Positions 34,959 to 43,827 of a DNA stretch of 57,877 nt are shown one piece after another; position 1 is the first letter of the stretch, and the number at the start of each line of letters is the position of its first letter. Below the pieces are notes generated by a model. It worked only from the letters and a program-made list of their open reading frames with translations. It searched no databases and had not been told where the DNA came from. Both the position numbers and the translations under genes were made by a program. This stretch comes from Gammaproteobacteria bacterium. Lineage in GTDB: Bacteria > Pseudomonadota > Gammaproteobacteria > Arenicellales > Poriferihabitantaceae. The DNA is taken from the NCBI GenBank assembly GCA_011088265.1, contig JAALKB010000001.1:107576-165452 (forward strand), read 5' to 3'.

Positions 34959-35609
34959 CTATTTCAGATCGACGGACATCTCCTCCAACTTTCTCATCTG
35001 ATTATTGAATTCCATTGTGCGATCCGTGGTTTTTCGCTGAATTTCTTCGCCCTGAATACTGTAATAAAGCAAAAATACCCCTAGACATCCAAGCAGAAGA
35101 ACTATTCTTGTTTTTGATTGCCCGTAAACGATCTCCGTTGCATGTGCTATCAACCAGATCCACCACACGACACAGATTGCCAAGCCAACATAGGGAATAA
35201 ATATCCCTATGGCCAAAATAGGTAAAATCACACAGGTATAGGCCACACACCGGTAAGCCACTTCAAATTTTTTATCGGCACCCAGGACACGCCACACCCC
35301 ATACATAAACCCAGCTAGAACAAAACTCCCTCCTACGCCGAGTAATGGATAGAACAAAGTATGCCAAAATGGGGATAACCCTAATCTAAAACCACCCAAC
35401 CCCAAACTAGTCAGTCCGAAAAACTGGATGGCCACCACAAACACGGTACCTAAAACGGACATCACCCCGACAAAAATCAGTGGATCGGTATAGCCTCCAG
35501 TTACAGGCATAAACGAATACAGTTTTTTCGGATTTGACAATAAGAGGCGGGATATTCCAAATACTGGACGGATATCCGACAACAATGATAACAATCTGCT
35601 CATCAACAT
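34959..35609 (-). CDS. multi-pass membrane protein (Yip1-like?)
   Basis: 216 aa with five or so hydrophobic segments. The family call is tentative. Confidence 0.55.
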   Translation of the reverse strand: MLMSRLLSLLSDIRPVFGISRLLLSNPKKLYSFMPVTGGYTDPLIFVGVMSVLGTVFVVAIQFFGLTSLGLGGFRLGLSPFWHTLFYPLLGVGGSFVLAGFMYGVWRVLGADKKFEVAYRCVAYTCVILPILAIGIFIPYVGLAICVVWWIWLIAHATEIVYGQSKTRIVLLLGCLGVFLLYYSIQGEEIQRKTTDRTMEFNNQMRKLEEMSVDLK

Positions 35610-35837: not shown

Positions 35838-37382
35838 TCAATGCTTAGAGGTTGACCGACGATAGTGACCTTGAATAATGCGATCAATCACCATGGCACA
35901 AAACAGAATGGCCAAACCAGCCAGCATACCCTGCCCTTTCGCTGCATATTGTAATGCTTCAAGCACATCTTTTCCCAAACCGTCCGCCCCAATTAAAGAA
36001 GCGATAACAACCATGGAGAGGCACATCAGAATTGTCTGGTTAATTCCAGTCATGATAGACGGCATCGCCAGTGGGATTTCAACATCCTTGAGCAGAGTCC
36101 ATTTCGTACAACCAAATGCGATGGCCGCCTCTTTTGTGTTTTCAGGCACTCCCCTCATACCCAAGGCAGTTAGTCTAATAACAGGGGGCATACCAAAAAT
36201 TATTGTAGCCAGTACACCGGGAGGCTTACCTGTACCAAAGAAAGCAATAATCGGGATTAAATAGACGAATGCTGGCATTGTTTGCATAAAATCGAGCACA
36301 GGTAGCGCAGTATTATAGGCTCGCTGGCTTTTACCAAACCAAATTCCTAAAGGAATACCCATTAACACGCATAAAAATGCAGCTGCCCCAAGCAAAGCAA
36401 CCGTAATCATACTTGTTTCCCACAGACCGACCATACCCAAATAAGCCAGGGCTGTGGCCGTAAATACGGCAACCCGGGGCCCGGCTAAGCGCCATGCTGT
36501 CACAAGAATTACCGTAAATACCACTGGCCATGGCGTACCAACGAAAACGGTTTCCAAACCATCGAGTATTGATCTGATCACAACTACCACAGTGTCAAAA
36601 ACATCGCCGAACTCATTGGACAACCAGTCAAAACCCTCCTCCATCCATCTGGAGATAGGTGAAAAGTACTGTTTCTTCTCAATCGGAAAGTCTAGAACCC
36701 AGGGCTCTAACGATTTAGCGATTTTACCAACCGTAAACCGATAGATTGTCAGCGGTACAATGGCAAGCCAAAGCACTACACCGAAACTAATCCATTTCCA
36801 GCTCAATCCCGAAGGAACTGAGGCATCCGCACGCCATTCCAGATATTGTTTTTCATAGCGCATATTGGCGTAAAACCCCTGTACCAACCTCAGAGCAACC
36901 AGCAATACCAAGCCAAGAACCAAATAAAAAGTAGCGTCCGCAGCAGCAGCCGCGGCTTCATCTATCAACCTCGCCACGACTTTTTTCAAGTTGTCTGCTC
37001 GAGTGGTAATACTTTCCACTGCGGCCAGATCATTGGCCAATCTCGCCGCTTCCGCTTTTTCATAAAGCCCTTCATATTTTCCTGTCAGGCGCTCCGCTCT
37101 CGACAATTTATCCGCGCCCAATTCTCCCCACAATCCTTTGCCAATTTGAACAAAGGCAAGAATTTCCAATACCATAAAAGTCCAGAAATATCCCCAAATA
37201 CCCCGCCCTGCCGCCCAGAAAGGTCCCACCAATGCGGCCATTTTGTTCCATGACCACGGAAATCTCGTTGCGGCCTGGATTTTGTCAAACTCCCGGTTGT
37301 AGTACTCCTTGTTTTCAACCACAAAGTCCCCAACGGAGGCACCCAATTTATTGGGCTCTGCTGAAAAGCCTGTTTCTTGCAT
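35838..37382 (-). CDS. proW: glycine-betaine-type ABC permease (ProW/OpuAB) with a roughly 290-aa N-terminal extension
   Basis: The C-terminal 220 aa carry the BPD permease core (EAA-like loop AIAFGCTKWTLLKDVEIP). The start codon overlaps the proV stop. Confidence 0.88.
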   Translation of the reverse strand: MQETGFSAEPNKLGASVGDFVVENKEYYNREFDKIQAATRFPWSWNKMAALVGPFWAAGRGIWGYFWTFMVLEILAFVQIGKGLWGELGADKLSRAERLTGKYEGLYEKAEAARLANDLAAVESITTRADNLKKVVARLIDEAAAAAADATFYLVLGLVLLVALRLVQGFYANMRYEKQYLEWRADASVPSGLSWKWISFGVVLWLAIVPLTIYRFTVGKIAKSLEPWVLDFPIEKKQYFSPISRWMEEGFDWLSNEFGDVFDTVVVVIRSILDGLETVFVGTPWPVVFTVILVTAWRLAGPRVAVFTATALAYLGMVGLWETSMITVALLGAAAFLCVLMGIPLGIWFGKSQRAYNTALPVLDFMQTMPAFVYLIPIIAFFGTGKPPGVLATIIFGMPPVIRLTALGMRGVPENTKEAAIAFGCTKWTLLKDVEIPLAMPSIMTGINQTILMCLSMVVIASLIGADGLGKDVLEALQYAAKGQGMLAGLAILFCAMVIDRIIQGHYRRSTSKH

Positions 37383-38428
37383 TAGTTATTTCCCCCTTTG
37401 ATGCCCTTTAGTAGCGTAGTTTTACTTACAACCCCGACATCTTTACCATCATCCGTTATCACGATGGGTTGATCCGTGGTAGTCGAGATATCAATTAACC
37501 CACTTAGATCAGTATCATGGGGCACTCTGGGAGCGACAGATAGATCATCGCCATGCTGCCATTCATAGTCCACCATTCTCTGCATAATAGAATGAGCAAA
37601 AATCAATTTCAGAGTTGATATTCCTTCAACAAAGTCCCTTACATAGTCATCAATCGGATTGGTAACAATCTCCTCGGGAGTCCCTATCTGGACAATGGCT
37701 CCATCCTTCATAATAGCAATTCGATTTCCTATTCGAATTGCCTCATCCAGATCATGGGTAATAAAAACGGTAGTTTTATCCAGGTCTGCTGACAATGCCA
37801 TAAACTGTTCCTGAAGCTGACGTCGAATTAACGGATCAAGCGCCGAAAAAGGCTCGTCCATTAATAACACTTCCGGGTCAGATGCTAGTGCACGGGCCAA
37901 TCCCACCCGTTGTTGCATACCGCCAGACAGTTCCCGAGGATAGCGATCTTCATAACCATCCAGATTCACTAAATCAAGACAGCGTTGAGAAACTTCCCAT
38001 CTTGTGGATTTGGGCTCACCTTGAACCTGAAGTGGAAATGCCACATTATCCCTAACCGTCCGATGGGGAAATAATGCCATGTGCTGAAACACCATTCCGA
38101 TATGAGCCGCCCGCAGCTTACGTAAATCGTCTTCGTTAAGTTTAAGCACATCCTTTCCAAGAACATTGATCTTTCCAGCTGTTGGCTCTATCAGCCTGTT
38201 TAGATGCCGAACCATAGTAGATTTACCTGAACCGGATAAACCCATCACACAAAAGATCTCACCTCTTGGAACCGAAAAAGAACAATCCGCAATACCAACG
38301 ACGCAGCCGAATTTCTCCAACACCTGAGGCTTGGATAGGTTATCTTCTTTAACGGCCTTCATTGCCTTTTCGGCTTTGTCGCCGAATATTTTCCAGACAC
38401 CTTCTAGCTCTATGACTTTTTCACTCAA
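37382..38428 (-). CDS. proV: glycine-betaine/proline-type ABC ATPase (ProV/OpuAA)
   Basis: Walker A GLSGSGKST, signature LSGGMQQRV, Walker B LLMDEPFSALD and a C-terminal CBS-like tail. Confidence 0.93.
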   Translation of the reverse strand: MSEKVIELEGVWKIFGDKAEKAMKAVKEDNLSKPQVLEKFGCVVGIADCSFSVPRGEIFCVMGLSGSGKSTMVRHLNRLIEPTAGKINVLGKDVLKLNEDDLRKLRAAHIGMVFQHMALFPHRTVRDNVAFPLQVQGEPKSTRWEVSQRCLDLVNLDGYEDRYPRELSGGMQQRVGLARALASDPEVLLMDEPFSALDPLIRRQLQEQFMALSADLDKTTVFITHDLDEAIRIGNRIAIMKDGAIVQIGTPEEIVTNPIDDYVRDFVEGISTLKLIFAHSIMQRMVDYEWQHGDDLSVAPRVPHDTDLSGLIDISTTTDQPIVITDDGKDVGVVSKTTLLKGIKGGNN

Positions 38429-38539
38429 GCTGATAATCCTCTAAAATATGGTGCTTGTAGTCTTACTCTAGTGTGATGTTCATCAGGAACACATACAAAC
38501 GAGACCTCAAGCATGTTGAACAAATCGAATACGTTCAAA

Positions 38540-38569
38540 AACACCCGTTACTGGAACACCCGTTATTGG
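38540..38569. repeat. tandem duplication, 15 bp x 2 (1 mismatch)
   Basis: aacacccgttactgg / aacacccgttattgg. Confidence 0.9.
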
Positions 38570-38635
38570 GCTCTCACATGATTCGTTATTATCCCGGTAC
38601 TGCCTAGGGAAATATCTACGATAACCATTTCATAC

Positions 38636-38670
38636 AAAACGAGCGGTGATCTCCACCGCTCGTTTTGTTT
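38636..38670 (-). terminator. bidirectional-looking rho-independent terminator downstream of proX
   Basis: AAAACGAGCGGTG-atctc-CACCGCTCGTTTT, a perfect 13-bp stem including the A/T tracts. It sits between proX and proV. Confidence 0.8.
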
Positions 38671-38739
38671 CTGATTATTATGACTACTTTACTTCACTGC
38701 GTGGAAAACACAAGGATTCGTCAGCAGGGCTCTACCCTG

Positions 38740-38779
38740 GTTAAATCCTATGTTAAATCCTATGTTAAATCACGCCTAT
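38740..38779. repeat. tandem repeat, 12 bp x 2 plus a third copy with a 4-nt insertion, reaching the proX stop codon
   Basis: gttaaatcctat / gttaaatcctat / gttaaatc-acgc-ctat. Confidence 0.9.
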
Positions 38780-39735
38780 TGCAGCCAGGTACTTACCAAA
38801 TCAGCATTTTTCTCAACCCACTCTTTCGCGAACTCTGCCTTGTCAACTTTATCGACAACAACTGCATAGGTCATTCCAGAAACGAGATCAGTGTCTAATT
38901 TGATGTTTGACAACATACTAGCCACACCAGGGTGGGAGTCCTGCAACGCAGTTGCATAGTGAACATGCAAATAAGCCAGGTCCCATGCAACAGGAGCCTC
39001 AGACTTTTCCAACCAATCAGGATCATCGGTAGGCTGAATCACATTCCATTTAGCAGCGTCATAATCTGGTTCACTGAGAATCACCAGATCGTGGAGAGCG
39101 AAAACATGGTTAGGCGTGTAGCAGAAAAAAGTGATGTTCTCGTCTTTCGCAACCGCACTATCAACCTCAGCCATCGCAAGGGTTTCGTCCATTTCTTTCA
39201 GCGACATGGTTTCGTTGTAACCATAGCTTTTCGCGCGGATCTTCTCAACATTGGTCGATGCCCAACCAGAGGCGCCAATCCAGACCTCACCCATGCCATC
39301 TCCGTCAGAGTCGAAATGTTTCGCCATATCCGGATCACTTAAGTCAGACAGGGCCTTGATTCCGGTTCTCTCAGCAGTACCCTTGGTAACGCACATGCCC
39401 TGGAACGCAGGCACACCATTAGGACTCATGGCAACTGTGCCTTTTTCCGTTACAAAGGTATTGTGAAGATTGGATTGGTTAGGCAACCAAACCTCTGGGT
39501 GAACATGCATACTGCCTGCATCCATGGCCTCAAATACTACAGGGTTTGTTCCACTTTGAAGCTCAACTTCCAAACCAAAGTTGTCTTCTATGACCACTTT
39601 GAGAATGTCTGCTGTTGCTGCCACAGAGGGCCAGTTAGGGACACCAATTACTACGTCAGCTGCCTGGGCTGCTGCGCCAAACACCATTGCTCCAGCAAGC
39701 ACAGGCGCCGTTATTTTTCGAGTTATTGCTTTCAT
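38776..39735 (-). CDS. proX: periplasmic substrate-binding protein of the OpuAC/ProX family
   Basis: Signal peptide MKAITRKITAPVLAGAMVFGAAAQA from the Met at 39735 (the ORF extends to 39789). Trp-rich binding-protein core. Confidence 0.82.
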   Translation of the reverse strand: MKAITRKITAPVLAGAMVFGAAAQAADVVIGVPNWPSVAATADILKVVIEDNFGLEVELQSGTNPVVFEAMDAGSMHVHPEVWLPNQSNLHNTFVTEKGTVAMSPNGVPAFQGMCVTKGTAERTGIKALSDLSDPDMAKHFDSDGDGMGEVWIGASGWASTNVEKIRAKSYGYNETMSLKEMDETLAMAEVDSAVAKDENITFFCYTPNHVFALHDLVILSEPDYDAAKWNVIQPTDDPDWLEKSEAPVAWDLAYLHVHYATALQDSHPGVASMLSNIKLDTDLVSGMTYAVVVDKVDKAEFAKEWVEKNADLVSTWLQ

Positions 39736-40165
39736 TTTTATACCTTTGGTTATTTTTTTCCGGAACGAACTAATATAAAACCCGCTCAATCATACTTTCT
39801 TTTTCAGGCTTTCCTGTCCACGGACAATCCTGTATTTTGCAATTTTGGAATACCAAATCCAATGATATCGAAATACAACCGCAAGGTTAGCATCTAAACA
39901 AAAGTAACGTTTATACGTGCCCAGGTTGCGCAGAAAAATGATATTGCGTAAGTTAAGTGTATTATTAATCCTAGTGCGATAGCAAGTTTGTGGATATTAC
40001 AGGCGAAACATCTGAAATTTGGCCCACCAGCCGTTGATTTCAGTAATGTTTTATCTTTATATTGCTTGTCTCAAAAATGTTTGCTCAAAATTCAAACAAC
40101 GCGTGTCACGAATCTTAATTCCATAGCACTGCTAACAACTAACAATAACCGATGTGGGAACTATC

Positions 40166-41065
40166 ATGAACAAACAGAATATTAGCCATCCATACTGGGG
40201 TATAGATAACGACTATGGCGTCCTCACTGATGTGCTGCTGGGAAAACCGAATTACTTCAAATGGGTTGAAGCCGGACCGCTAATTGGTCGCACGCTGCGG
40301 AATATGCACAAAACTGGTATTAAATTTGACTTTGATCTGGCTCAACGTCAGCATGCAGAAATGGTTAAAATCTATGAAAATGCCGGTGTGAAATGTCATT
40401 ATCTGGATTCTGACCCAGTGCTGCACAGAAATTTTTTCGCCAGAGATTCCAGTGCCATGACGCCCTGGGGAGCTCTGATCTGTCATATGCAACTTAAATG
40501 TCGACGAGCAGACTACCACACTGCAATAAAATTCTACCAGGACAACAACATCCCCATTTGGCAATATGCGACTGCAGGACATTTTGAAGGAGGTGATTTT
40601 GTTATTCTGGAACCTGGGACGGTATTGATCGGGTATTGCGGTGAGAGATCCGAACAGGAGGGATCTGAACAGGTCGCTGAATTTGTTCAAAAAGAAGGCT
40701 GGGATGTCGAAGTGGCACCGATCCCCGCTCTCTTTGTGCATATGGATGGGCTCGTTGTTCCTTTAGACCAAAAACTCCTGGTGACTTGTCTGGATGCTTT
40801 GGAGGGCTGGGTTGTTGACTGGCTAAAAAAGAAAGGTTTCTCCTTCGTTGATGTTGGGTTCAATGAAGCCAAAGATCTGGGAGTCAACCTGGTTTCCCTC
40901 GGTAACAAATGCGTCCTATCGATGTCAGGAAGTGTTAACCTCAATAAAAAACTCCGTTCGTTAGGTTATAAAGTCTACGCTCCAGATATGTCGATGTTCA
41001 CTTTGGGGGGTGGAGGCGTTCACTGTTTGTGCCAGGCGCTAAGACGGGAATCAGTAGAAATATAA
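40166..41065 (+). CDS. amidinotransferase-fold (DDAH / arginine-deiminase-like) guanidino-modifying enzyme
   Basis: About 300 aa. C-terminal GGGGVHCLCQAL, the catalytic-Cys context of the guanidino-group-modifying superfamily. An alternative GTG start lies at 40154. Confidence 0.75.
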   Translation: MNKQNISHPYWGIDNDYGVLTDVLLGKPNYFKWVEAGPLIGRTLRNMHKTGIKFDFDLAQRQHAEMVKIYENAGVKCHYLDSDPVLHRNFFARDSSAMTPWGALICHMQLKCRRADYHTAIKFYQDNNIPIWQYATAGHFEGGDFVILEPGTVLIGYCGERSEQEGSEQVAEFVQKEGWDVEVAPIPALFVHMDGLVVPLDQKLLVTCLDALEGWVVDWLKKKGFSFVDVGFNEAKDLGVNLVSLGNKCVLSMSGSVNLNKKLRSLGYKVYAPDMSMFTLGGGGVHCLCQALRRESVEI

Positions 41066-41186
41066 ACCCAAAAAATTAAGCCCTAAGGCCCCGTCAGGAC
41101 CCGGTTCGATGAACCGAATAGACCACCTGATCACCAAAATAACCATTAAGTCTTGAATATTAAGAAACTAAAGAATAGAAATCATC

Positions 41187-42437
41187 ATGTCAAATAGTGC
41201 AATAAAGATCGATGGCAGTAGGCTCTGGGATAGCATCATGGCCATGGCGGAAATTGGCCCTGGTGATGAGGGAGGGTCAAGACGCCTCGCTTTAACGGAT
41301 GAAGACAAAGAAGGTCGCGATATTTTCGTTCAGTGGTGCAAGCAGGCTGGTTGCCACATTACTATTGATGATTTAGGCAATATTTTTGCCCGACGTCCAG
41401 GACAGGATGATAGCTTGCCTCCGATCGTCGCCGGGAGTCATTTAGATACTCAGCCCCATGGTGGGAAATTTGATGGCATCTACGGCGTCCTGGCCGCATT
41501 GGAAGTTGTGCGGACTCTGAACGATCATAATATCACTACTCGTGCTCCCCTGGAAATTGTCATGTGGACGAATGAAGAAGGCTCTCGTTTCGCCCCAGCT
41601 ATGATCGCTTCCGGCGTATTTGCGGGATTGTTTACCAAAGAGTTTGCTTATTCCCGGGAAGATGTCGATGGTCTAACCCTGAAGGATGAATTAAAGCGCA
41701 TTGATTATCTCGGAGAGCAGCCTTGCGGCACACACCCTATCGGCGCGTTGTTCGAGGCACATATTGAACAAGGCCCGATTCTAGAAGCAAATCGAAATCA
41801 AATTGGAATCGTTATCGGTGGTCAGGGACAGCGATGGTTTGATGTCACCTTAAAAGGACAGGATTCTCACGCCGGCTCCACCCCAATGAAAGGTCGTAAA
41901 GATGCCTTGGTTGCTGCATCTGAACTCATACTATCTATCCAGCGCATTGCACTGGATTATGCCCCCCATGGCGTCGCTACCGTGGGTCAAATGTCCGTCA
42001 GCCCTAACTCCCGCAATACCATTCCAGGGGAGGTATTCCTAACAGTAGATATCCGTAACCCCGATGACGACGTCCTTCTTGAAATGCGTGATGCCTTCGA
42101 AGCATCGCTGGGGAAAGTTCATGACTCTCACGGCGTTGTCGTTGATAGCAAAGAAATATGGCACTGCCCACCTGTCGTATTTGATCAAGAATGCGTTTCT
42201 GCAGTAAGAAATGCAGCAAGCAGGATCGGCTATTCCCATCAGGATATTGTCTCTGGAGCGGGGCATGATGCTTGCCAGGTTTGTCGAGTTGCTCCTACAG
42301 CGATGATTTTCGTTCCATGTGAAGCAGGACTCAGTCACAATGAACAGGAGCATGCTGAACCAACAGATCTGGAGGCAGGATGCAATGTGCTGCTTCATGC
42401 CATGCTAGAAATGACGGAACAGGTTTCCTCGGAATAA
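41187..42437 (+). CDS. M20-family Zn amidase (N-carbamoyl-L-amino-acid / allantoate amidohydrolase type)
   Basis: 416 aa. GSHLDTQPHGGKFDGIYGV motif typical of the AmaB/AllC group. Confidence 0.85.
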   Translation: MSNSAIKIDGSRLWDSIMAMAEIGPGDEGGSRRLALTDEDKEGRDIFVQWCKQAGCHITIDDLGNIFARRPGQDDSLPPIVAGSHLDTQPHGGKFDGIYGVLAALEVVRTLNDHNITTRAPLEIVMWTNEEGSRFAPAMIASGVFAGLFTKEFAYSREDVDGLTLKDELKRIDYLGEQPCGTHPIGALFEAHIEQGPILEANRNQIGIVIGGQGQRWFDVTLKGQDSHAGSTPMKGRKDALVAASELILSIQRIALDYAPHGVATVGQMSVSPNSRNTIPGEVFLTVDIRNPDDDVLLEMRDAFEASLGKVHDSHGVVVDSKEIWHCPPVVFDQECVSAVRNAASRIGYSHQDIVSGAGHDACQVCRVAPTAMIFVPCEAGLSHNEQEHAEPTDLEAGCNVLLHAMLEMTEQVSSE

Positions 42438-42502
42438 AGATTACCCAAAAAGACTTTATCCAGAGATCACCTTTATTCGTACTTACTGAATTCTTCCACA
42501 CT

Positions 42503-42808
42503 ATGTGCAAAACAACAGAAATCGGTAGCGCTTCCTCCACCGTATTCATTGAAAACCAAAGAACCCGGGTGACCGAATGGCGGTTTTTGAAAAGAGACGA
42601 TAACACTGGCTGGCATCGACACGACTATGATTACGTTGTTGTACCATTATTTGACGGTACGTTAAAGATAAGGACTGAAGATGGGAATCTGACTCAGGCT
42701 CCGATGCTAAATGGAATACCTTATTTTCGCGAAAAAGGAGTTGAACATGATGTTATCAACGACAACGATTTTGAATGCGCTTTTGTCGAAATTGAATTTA
42801 TAAGATAG
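42503..42808 (+). CDS. small cupin-domain protein
   Basis: 101 aa from the ATG at 42503. GWHRHDYDY...VEHDV cupin motifs. The longer ORF from 42380 overlaps the M20 gene. Confidence 0.6.
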   Translation: MCKTTEIGSASSTVFIENQRTRVTEWRFLKRDDNTGWHRHDYDYVVVPLFDGTLKIRTEDGNLTQAPMLNGIPYFREKGVEHDVINDNDFECAFVEIEFIR

Positions 42809-42867
42809 CGATTTTTCGTTAAACGCCACCTCCACGAAAACACTGCACAGACTTCTAAAGAGTTGAC

Positions 42868-43827
42868 ATGAGCGATTACCCCGAGTTCTCTGATCCCATT
42901 ACTCGTCCCCGTTACACGGGCCTGCCCACTTTCATGCGAGCTCCCTATCAGGAAAATTTCGACGGAGTCGATATCGGTTTAATAGGAGTACCATTCGATG
43001 GTGGAGTAACTAACCGTCCCGGCGCTCGACACGGCCCAAGAGAAATCAGAAACCAATCAAGTCTGATTAGGAAAATGAATCAGGCAACTGGCATTTCACC
43101 TCATGAAATTTGCAGTGTAGCCGATATTGGAGATGCCTGGGTGCAGAAACCTTTCACCCTGGAGGGAAGCCATCAGGAAATTTATGGGTTTTACCAATCG
43201 GTAATGGATGCAGGAGTAACTCCGGTATCAGCGGGTGGGGATCACTCGATCACTCTTCCTATTTTTCGCGCACTAGCCAGAAAGGGCCCCATTGGAATGG
43301 TTCACTTCGACGCTCATTGCGACACTGGTGACGATTACATGGGTTCAAAATTTCACCATGGCGCACCTTTCAGCCGAGCCGTGGAAGAAGGATTACTCGA
43401 CCCCAAACGCACTATTCAAATCGGCATCAGAGGATCACTAAACGATCCCGATGTCTGGAAGTTTAGTCATGACTCCGGGATGCGGGTTATCTATATAGAA
43501 GAATACTTTGAAATGGGATACAAATCAGTTATCGAAGAAGCCCGGAAGATAGTTGGCAATGGCCCCACATATATCAGCTTTGATGTCGACGCCCTGGATC
43601 CCGTTTATGCTCCGGGAACAGGTACTCCAGAGATTGGTGGCTATTCCACTCTGGAGGCCCAAATGATGATTCGAGGATTAAGCGGGCTTAATTTAGTGGG
43701 AGGTGATGTGGTAGAGGTCTCCCCACCATTCGATCCAAGCGGTAATACTGCGCTAGTGGGAGCCACAATGATGTTCGAAATTCTTTGCGTTGTAGCTGAA
43801 TCATTACAATCCCACAAAGCGACTTAA
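42868..43827 (+). CDS. agmatinase-family ureohydrolase (agmatinase / guanidinobutyrase / guanidinopropionase type)
   Basis: Mn-site motifs GGDHSIT, HFDAHCDTGD and SFDVDALDP. Confidence 0.9.
   Translation: MSDYPEFSDPITRPRYTGLPTFMRAPYQENFDGVDIGLIGVPFDGGVTNRPGARHGPREIRNQSSLIRKMNQATGISPHEICSVADIGDAWVQKPFTLEGSHQEIYGFYQSVMDAGVTPVSAGGDHSITLPIFRALARKGPIGMVHFDAHCDTGDDYMGSKFHHGAPFSRAVEEGLLDPKRTIQIGIRGSLNDPDVWKFSHDSGMRVIYIEEYFEMGYKSVIEEARKIVGNGPTYISFDVDALDPVYAPGTGTPEIGGYSTLEAQMMIRGLSGLNLVGGDVVEVSPPFDPSGNTALVGATMMFEILCVVAESLQSHKAT

Follow-up and report, generated by a model that had tools for sequence, protein, structure and literature searches.

Two kinds of described bacterial system come closest to the gene cluster discussed here, which occupies positions 35838-43827 of a 57,877-nucleotide stretch (the window) of contig JAALKB010000001.1, assembly GCA_011088265.1, from a marine sulfur-oxidising bacterium. 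In the agmatine deiminase pathway (AguA/AguB), a Cys-dependent pentein deiminase converts a guanidino group into a ureido group, which a second hydrolase then breaks down to CO2, ammonia and the amine. In Pseudomonas aeruginosa, guanidino acids are instead the substrates of ureohydrolases such as the 3-guanidinopropionase GpuA. To our knowledge, the bacterial routes described for guanidino acids all end in urea, and urease is needed for the cell to benefit from them. Little has been mapped of what marine bacteria do with such compounds as guanidinopropionate, taurocyamine, guanidinoacetate and creatine, all of them nitrogen-rich products of animal metabolism.

The cluster consists of seven genes in two divergent units, with three transporter genes on the minus strand and four genes on the enzyme side on the plus strand (Table 1). 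It follows the logic of the agmatine deiminase pathway with enzymes of other families, to which a GpuA-type hydrolase and an importer of the betaine-binding fold are added. The first enzyme is not a member of the AguA family (PF04371), the second is an M20 metallo-amidase rather than a protein of the nitrilase superfamily, and the substrate we infer is an acid rather than the cationic agmatine, with a betaine-type ATP-binding cassette (ABC) importer attached. Judged from the sequences, the cluster is on balance probably a unit that takes up a small zwitterionic omega-guanidino acid and releases its nitrogen, with 3-guanidinopropionate and/or taurocyamine as the likeliest substrates. An earlier note on this DNA had proposed two routes for the removal of a guanidino group, by a deiminase followed by a ureido-amidase or by direct ureohydrolysis. 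The enzyme identities fit both routes and the enzyme genes are co-conserved; the seven genes, their strands and their divergence are also exactly as it had described them. Its picture is largely right and can be sharpened, with partial support overall.

The class of substrate is suggested by the ureohydrolase. The protein belongs to PF00491 (299 bits), retains the metal motifs GGDH, DAHCD and DVDALDP intact, and has P. aeruginosa GpuA (3nip) as its closest solved relative, which it matches over its full length (residues 2-313) with 414.8 bits, compared with 295.5 bits for GbuA and 189 for E. coli SpeB. Its R68 aligns with Arg72 of GbuA, the equivalent of Arg105 in human AGMAT, a residue for which a contact with the acid group of taurocyamine and other guanidino acids has been proposed (PMC9772407). 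The SpeB models gave a divided result, with TIGR01230 just exceeded (175.7 bits against a cut-off of 174.3) and NF002564 narrowly missed (290.6 against 302). The sequence features of GpuA are thus present together, and since GpuA is the closest relative, the Mn motifs are intact and the acid-contacting Arg is kept, the protein is predicted to be a GpuA-like guanidino-acid hydrolase and not an agmatinase of the polyamine pathway. The label of agmatinase-family ureohydrolase given in the earlier note therefore holds as regards the family and probably fails in the polyamine sense. The setting of the gene is different as well. In Pseudomonas, the neighbours of gpuA are a LysR regulator and a sodium:solute symporter, whereas in the window the gene closes an operon that also encodes a deiminase-fold enzyme and a carbamoylase, and an ABC importer is encoded alongside.

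The deiminase-fold enzyme itself is harder to place. Its AlphaFold model (predicted local distance difference test score, pLDDT, 96.2) was matched by Foldseek with a probability of 1.00 to dimethylarginine dimethylaminohydrolase (DDAH), arginine deiminase (ADI), AGAT, ArgZ and NnhA, at 15-20% identity and with TM-scores of 0.73-0.82 for DDAH, ADI and ArgZ. The lowest root-mean-square deviation among these matches, 2.6 Å, was to the N-domain of ArgZ; even so, the fold comparison singled out no nearest subfamily among NnhA, DDAH, ADI, the amidinotransferases including AGAT, and ArgZ, all of which came out about equal. NnhA is a 2-nitroimidazole nitrohydrolase (PMC11659421). In the alignment with P. 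aeruginosa ADI, whose catalytic residues were taken from the titles of PDB mutant entries, D94, H192, D194 and C287 pair with Asp166, His278, Asp280 and Cys406, and the GGGGVHCLC motif singled out in the earlier note is found at residue 281. The protein accordingly has what defines the pentein superfamily and what it shares with DDAH, ADI and ArgZ, namely the fold, the catalytic Cys, His and Asp, and the Asp that holds the guanidinium group. Among 58 family members (23-86% identity), each of the four catalytic residues is conserved in at least 90%, while R113, E141 and R161 are invariant. R113 and R161 sit in the RR and GERS motifs common to ADI and DDAH. As we take these motifs to hold the substrate carboxylate, the substrate of the pentein enzyme is likely to be an anionic guanidino compound.

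Placement within the superfamily, which had been left between DDAH, ADI and agmatine deiminase, does not extend to any named family. Pfam reports only ADI (PF02274, 71.8 bits) and DDAH_eukar (PF19420, 49.5 bits), with no match to PF04371, and its alignment with ADI is confined to two separate stretches. The NCBIfam models for DDAH, ADI and ArgZ yielded 25-62 bits against cut-offs of 300-1025: the DDAH models NF045659, NF045660 and NF045658 gave 61.7, 56.8 and 40.1 bits (cut-offs 300, 340 and 450), the ArcA model TIGR01078 gave 47.9 (489.1) and the ArgZ/AgrE N-domain model NF052232 gave 32.4 (450). At 299 residues the protein is compact like DDAH and the N-domain of ArgZ, without the helical insert of ADI (about 410 residues), and its gene context is unlike that of all three. 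With scores so far under every DDAH, ADI and ArgZ cut-off, it appears to represent an uncharacterised family, for which 437 representative clusters are found in public data at E values of 1e-10 or better. In the literature on guanidinopropionate and taurocyamine deiminases, on guanidino acids of sponges and on DDAH-like genes of sponge symbionts, no paper on this family or on the cluster was found. We propose that the protein is a guanidino-acid deiminase.

Database records name the homologues generically, as N-dimethylarginine dimethylaminohydrolase or arginine deiminase family protein. Taken at face value, these names would suit a methylarginine or arginine pathway in which citrulline is formed by a DDAH- or ADI-like enzyme and broken down by the M20 protein (as citrullinase), with the ureohydrolase serving as arginase. 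The conserved carboxylate-holding arginines would agree with this, as would the form of the cluster in Paraglaciecola, where the pentein and M20 genes are followed by genes for a class I/II aminotransferase and an aldehyde dehydrogenase, neither of which reached the cut-off of a specific family. Such a pathway is nevertheless quite improbable in view of the model scores just given. The arginase model is also far from reached by the ureohydrolase (89.5 bits against 227.6), the importer is of the betaine rather than the amino-acid type, and ornithine-handling genes do not recur nearby in 80 loci collected by a scan anchored on the pentein protein (42-91% identity). Of the substrates named in the earlier note, methylarginines are unlikely, and the best fit is given by guanidinopropionate and compounds like taurocyamine.

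A second pentein paralogue, 45% identical, is encoded elsewhere in the host genome (G000:C198:27718-28650, locus L087:8718-9650). It is surrounded by genes for a family-5 binding-protein ABC system, EamA exporters, an Ldh_2 dehydrogenase and an aldehyde dehydrogenase, and the same paralogue type recurs in other genomes.

The M20 protein could be assigned more closely. It contains both PF01546 and PF07687, carries the motif GSHLDTQPHGGKFDG, which had been quoted before, at residue 83, and belongs to the hydantoinase/carbamoylase family (TIGR01879, 421.7 bits against a cut-off of 204) and to the subfamily described by NF006769 (654 against 452). Its nearest solved relatives are two uncharacterised Burkholderia structures and the N-carbamoyl-beta-alanine amidohydrolase 8c46, an M20 beta-ureidopropionase of the same family from Rhizobium radiobacter, which is matched over the full length with 484 bits; PDB entry 5thw gave 551 bits. 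Allantoate and ureidoglycolate hydrolases follow far behind (182 bits for allantoate amidohydrolase). The enzyme, of which this is the sole copy found in the host genome, is thus predicted to be of the N-carbamoyl-beta-alanine amidohydrolase type. It differs from 8c46 in that its gene is not beside genes for dihydropyrimidinase or dihydropyrimidine dehydrogenase. Because it instead follows the deiminase-fold gene, the ureido acid that it acts on would come from a guanidino acid and not from a pyrimidine. The idea that carbamoylases of the Agrobacterium type also act on N-carbamoyltaurine found no confirmation in the literature searched and carries no weight here.

A different origin for this part of the cluster would be a remnant of ureide or pyrimidine catabolism, with the M20 protein as an allantoate or beta-ureidopropionate hydrolase and the small cupin as a ureidoglycine-type aminohydrolase. 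The best-scoring M20 subfamily model is indeed labelled 'allantoate amidohydrolase' by NCBIfam, and the cupin gene lies 3' of the M20 gene. Yet the equivalog models for AllC and allantoate hydrolysis are far from reached (TIGR03176, 250 bits against 597.75; NF006768, 297.4 against 532), genes for dihydropyrimidinase, allantoinase or ureidoglycolate turnover do not recur beside the cluster, and the cupin is absent from 79 of the 80 related loci, being found in the closest relative (L001) only. We regard this origin as very improbable. The cupin has a weak match to Cupin_2 (E 0.0055) and resembles solved cupins of about 97 residues without a known function (2fqp, E 1e-24; 3lag, E 1e-18). The earlier note was right that it is a real gene, although it is an accessory and no part of the conserved unit. 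In three other loci (L007:5196-6416, L012 and L015), the M20 gene is followed on its 3' side by a gene for a 406-residue protein made of three RidA/L-PSP domains, which may serve to deal with a reactive imine or enamine.

The importer is of the OpuA/ProU type, as an OpuAC-fold binding protein, a proV-family ATPase and a ProW-like permease are encoded together. The real start of the binding-protein gene is the ATG at 39735, which is followed by a Sec signal peptide. The protein gave 170.8 bits with PF04069 and remained well below the models for ProX (NF008334, 77.2 against 215) and for the choline-binding protein (TIGR03414, 70.8 against 379.05). Its structural model (pLDDT 87.7) found its best folds in TmoX (4xz6), ProX (1r9l), ChoX (2reg) and DmpX (7yle), with 17-20% identity and TM-scores of 0.69-0.76. 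The three tryptophans that form the cage of E. coli ProX correspond in the alignment to W83, W158 and Y206, so that a Tyr stands for a Trp at one cage position, and the latter three residues and W35 are invariant in 24 homologues. This agrees with the aromatic cage that had been expected of an OpuAC-type protein, and the sequences indicate a distinct OpuAC-type subfamily in which the cation-pi cage is kept. Because such a cage suits a delocalised guanidinium equally well, it does not decide between guanidinium and onium ligands.

The partners of the binding protein also set the system apart from those of the ProX type. The ATPase exceeds the cut-off of TIGR01186 (353.8 bits against 326.6), a score that covers profile positions 2-250 of 363 only. 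Pfam detects ABC_tran and no CBS domain in it, and the tandem C-terminal CBS pair of the osmoregulated ProV/OpuAA proteins is missing, for which reason a nutrient importer fits better than an osmoregulated one. The permease is below the cut-offs of both the ChoW model (277 against 363) and the ProW model (263 against 439), with its ProW-like core in the C-terminal half, preceded by an N-terminal extension of about 240 residues. As the homologues in the related loci (L001-L079) have 509-529 residues, this extension is conserved; its only match is a weak one to DUF2628 (E 0.0036), and it is also present in a sister subfamily. From these features, it could be argued in two directions whether the transporter is simply an importer of ordinary compatible solutes or methylated amines (the class of betaine, choline, trimethylamine N-oxide and dimethylsulfoniopropionate) that stands beside an unrelated enzyme operon by chance, while the substrate of the enzymes arrives by other means. 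The retained cage speaks for this, and so do the nearest folds, which bind trimethylamine N-oxide, glycine betaine, choline and dimethylsulfoniopropionate. The low identity to any solved betaine-type protein, the failed ProX and ChoX cut-offs and the ATPase without CBS osmosensing domains speak against it. Together with the gene linkage described below, they make a chance neighbour of this kind unlikely.

The sister subfamily of binding proteins (36-40% identity) occurs with the same long permease in loci L123-L129 of other genomes, and the host has a copy of its own (G000:C116:1860-2780, locus L088). Five of these seven loci have, next to it, genes for an alpha/beta hydrolase and for the D-cysteate sulfo-lyase CuyA, which exceeds its cut-off of 450 with 491 bits. 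The distance to xsc is 7 kb in one genome, and every genome that has the sister binding protein also has xsc. The sister system may import some cationic or zwitterionic sulfonate, and since it adjoins the cysteate sulfo-lyase, the wider clade of binding proteins would be tied to small sulfonate zwitterions.

By record name, most of the 80 loci belong to Arenicellales, Candidatus Poriferihabitaceae, Spongiihabitans, Granulosicoccaceae, Ruegeria and other Rhodobacteraceae, and the close homologues are mostly sponge-associated. Linkage was counted in the 54 loci in which the pentein homologue is flanked by 5 kb or more in each direction. Adjacent to it are the M20 gene in 25 of them, this subfamily of binding protein in 23 and the ureohydrolase gene in 11. 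The transporter is placed divergent from, upstream of or downstream of the enzymes, in both Gamma- and Alphaproteobacteria, and an adjacency found in two classes and several arrangements speaks against a chance neighbour. Paraglaciecola, at 43% identity, still has the pentein-M20 pair, with a LysR gene divergent from it. Carriers in culture are Paraglaciecola marina D3211 and Ruegeria atlantica HKCCD9103, which has LysR, deiminase, M20 and binding-protein genes one after another (locus L031). Some pentein-M20 loci carry a family-5 binding protein instead, which is what an importer unrelated to the enzymes would allow. Five genomes with the pentein gene and the transporter and no adjacent M20 gene have an M20 homologue elsewhere, at 48-51% identity.

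Co-occurrence at the level of genomes was assessed in a sample of 400 Gammaproteobacteria, with counts that are inflated by kinship. A close binding protein was found in five genomes and a close deiminase gene in five, four of them common to both. The sole genome with the deiminase gene among those lacking the binding protein (one of about 394) uses a family-5 system. A co-occurrence of four in five as against one in about 394 again argues against an ordinary importer that came to lie here by chance. Linkage of transporter and enzymes is facultative, and the unit is conserved but modular. The neighbourhood conservation on which the earlier proposal depended is accordingly found for the M20 gene and the binding protein and does not extend to every copy of the transporter.

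The sequences show the identities of the genes, the conservation of the catalytic residues and the gene linkage; with the substrate, the order of reactions and the physiological role as we infer them, the unit would work as follows. The OpuAC-type protein would capture the guanidino acid with its guanidinium group in the aromatic cage, and the ABC importer would bring the compound into the cell. In a first branch, the Cys-His-Asp machinery of the pentein enzyme would hydrolyse the guanidino group to a ureido group with release of one ammonia, after which the M20 carbamoylase would convert 3-ureidopropionate or N-carbamoyltaurine to beta-alanine or taurine, with CO2 and a second ammonia. In a second branch, the GpuA-like ureohydrolase would cut the same class of compound straight to the amine and urea. 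In the best candidates, two methylene groups most likely separate the guanidino group from the acid group, taurocyamine being the sulfonate analogue of 3-guanidinopropionate. The resulting amine would feed into ald-xsc-pta in the case of taurine, or into a methylmalonate/malonate-semialdehyde dehydrogenase in the case of beta-alanine. Both the taurine dissimilation core ald-xsc-pta and methylmalonate-semialdehyde dehydrogenase (MMSDH) are present in the host genome, so that either amine could be used further.

The two branches would not be equal for this host. Its genome, which is 97% complete, has six arginase-family genes (C68, C261, C128, C21, C11 and C32), while ureC (urease alpha), urea carboxylase and allophanate hydrolase are all without a match over cut-off. 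Urea released by the ureohydrolases would therefore be lost or excreted, and because the host cannot use urea, guanidino nitrogen would become available as ammonia only via the deiminase-carbamoylase branch. A more general rule, by which the deiminase route replaces urease, was considered and rejected, since urease is present in two of five related genomes and absent from three. As to the choice between carboxylate and sulfonate, xsc occurs in 26 of 399 sampled genomes, yet it is missing from none of the five that have the binding protein, nor from any of the five that have the deiminase gene. These links, and those of the sister subfamily, lean towards a sulfonate such as taurocyamine, though a habitat in common would account for them just as well.

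Creatine or guanidinoacetate could be thought of in place of these compounds, in which case the deiminase would form N-carbamoylsarcosine or N-carbamoylglycine and the M20 enzyme sarcosine or glycine. A methylated guanidinium would suit the aromatic cage, and the host has at least two sarcosine oxidase beta genes and many dimethylglycine-dehydrogenase-like genes. The names of the relatives mostly point to sponges, and the literature retrieved discusses the use of creatine by sponge symbionts. The enzymes themselves point elsewhere, as the closest relative of the ureohydrolase is a guanidinopropionase rather than an enzyme specific for creatine or guanidinoacetate, the M20 enzyme comes closest to the beta-alanine type, and genes for sarcosine use or glycine cleavage do not recur beside the cluster in the 80 loci. 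We therefore think it rather doubtful that creatine or guanidinoacetate is the substrate.

Several observations weigh against a dedicated guanidino-acid unit. In 17 of the 54 loci, none of the M20, binding-protein and ureohydrolase genes is adjacent and the pentein gene stands alone, with only housekeeping neighbours. All five other sampled genomes whose binding protein is 67-80% identical lack a gene for the deiminase, the M20 enzyme or the ureohydrolase within about 8 kb of it; these transporters stand among housekeeping genes, as would be expected of an ordinary importer. In the alphaproteobacterial sample, which is too thin to replicate the co-occurrence, one genome has a 73% identical binding protein and no deiminase match, and in another the two genes, each about 52% identical, are unlinked. 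Since trimethylammonium ligands are what such an aromatic cage classically binds, the importer could carry an ordinary betaine. By fold, the pentein enzyme is as near to DDAH, ADI, the amidinotransferases and ArgZ, and its chemistry is read as that of a deiminase, rather than a dihydrolase or an amidinotransferase, because of the adjacent carbamoylase alone. As it is unusual for one operon to have two enzymes for the same substrate, the ureohydrolase and the pentein enzyme may have different ones. The co-occurrence with xsc, finally, may reflect shared habitat and kinship and not function.

The favoured reading of the cluster, as a unit for uptake of and nitrogen release from an omega-guanidino acid, leads to a further and more tentative suggestion. 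It is possible that the pentein protein founds a new activity, a deiminase acting on taurocyamine and/or 3-guanidinopropionate, which with the M20 carbamoylase and a guanidinium-binding protein of the betaine fold would make up a urease-independent route. The cluster suggests a second route for guanidino acids, one that needs no urease. If so, host-associated marine sulfur oxidisers would harvest all the nitrogen of animal guanidino acids, and in the case of taurocyamine they would also gain the taurine skeleton, with its sulfite feeding sulfur oxidation. This would constitute a new Enzyme Commission activity, and new annotations would be due for a few thousand proteins that now go by "dimethylarginine dimethylaminohydrolase" or "arginine deiminase family". 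Guanidinium compounds would join the ligands of the betaine-binding-protein fold, and sponge-associated bacteria would be seen to have a specific host-to-symbiont nitrogen currency.

Table 1. Features of the cluster and its immediate surroundings, in window coordinates.
Feature	Position	Strand	Basis or remark
Yip1-type membrane protein (flank)	34959..35609		open reading frame
Permease, OpuA/ProU-type ABC importer, 514 residues	35838..37382	-	PF00528 at residues 342-499
N-terminal extension of permease	36663..37382	-	weak DUF2628 match
ABC ATPase, betaine/proline/choline family, 348 residues	37382..38428	-	TIGR01186, proV subfamily
Strong hairpin between binding-protein and ATPase genes	38634..38668		stem of 15 pairs (8 G-C), then T-rich tail
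Tandem repeat	38740..38779		12-base unit
OpuAC-type periplasmic substrate-binding protein, Sec signal peptide	38776..39735	-	PF04069
Divergent promoter region, 430 bp, between binding-protein gene and enzyme operon	39736..40165		sequence reading
Pentein/deiminase-fold enzyme, 299 residues, cytoplasmic	40166..41065	+	Pfam ADI, DDAH_eukar; fold model
M20 hydantoinase/carbamoylase-family amidase, 416 residues	41187..42437	+	TIGR01879, NF006769, PDB matches
Small single-domain cupin, 101 residues	42503..42808	+	PDB 2fqp, 3lag; Cupin_2
Mn-ureohydrolase, predicted guanidino-acid hydrolase type	42868..43827	+	PF00491; closest to GpuA

The layout of the locus adds a few details. On the plus strand, the four genes are separated by gaps of 121, 65 and 59 bp, and no terminator-like site was found on that strand inside the row of enzyme genes. 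On the minus strand, the hairpin between the binding-protein and ATPase genes is likely an attenuating terminator. In the divergent region, sigma-70-like matches were weak and no more numerous than in shuffled sequence. The cluster genes at this locus encode no regulator, as had been said, and yet relatives carry a divergent LysR gene. Since the G+C content of the region (0.45-0.46) is the same as that of the rest of the window, the region is not an island in the compositional sense.

Some minor observations concern the surroundings. The sarcosine oxidase beta genes of the host score over cut-off, and its dimethylglycine-dehydrogenase-like open reading frames, of about 820 residues each, number more than 10, which indicates a heavy investment in methylated-amine catabolism for a sulfur oxidiser. 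The flanks of the cluster are unrelated to it, with glycan genes, cysC and the gene for the Yip1 membrane protein on one side and genes for a TPR protein, a fabD-like protein and folD on the other. The tandem repeat has the 12-base unit GTTAAATCCTAT and abuts the stop codon of the binding-protein gene.

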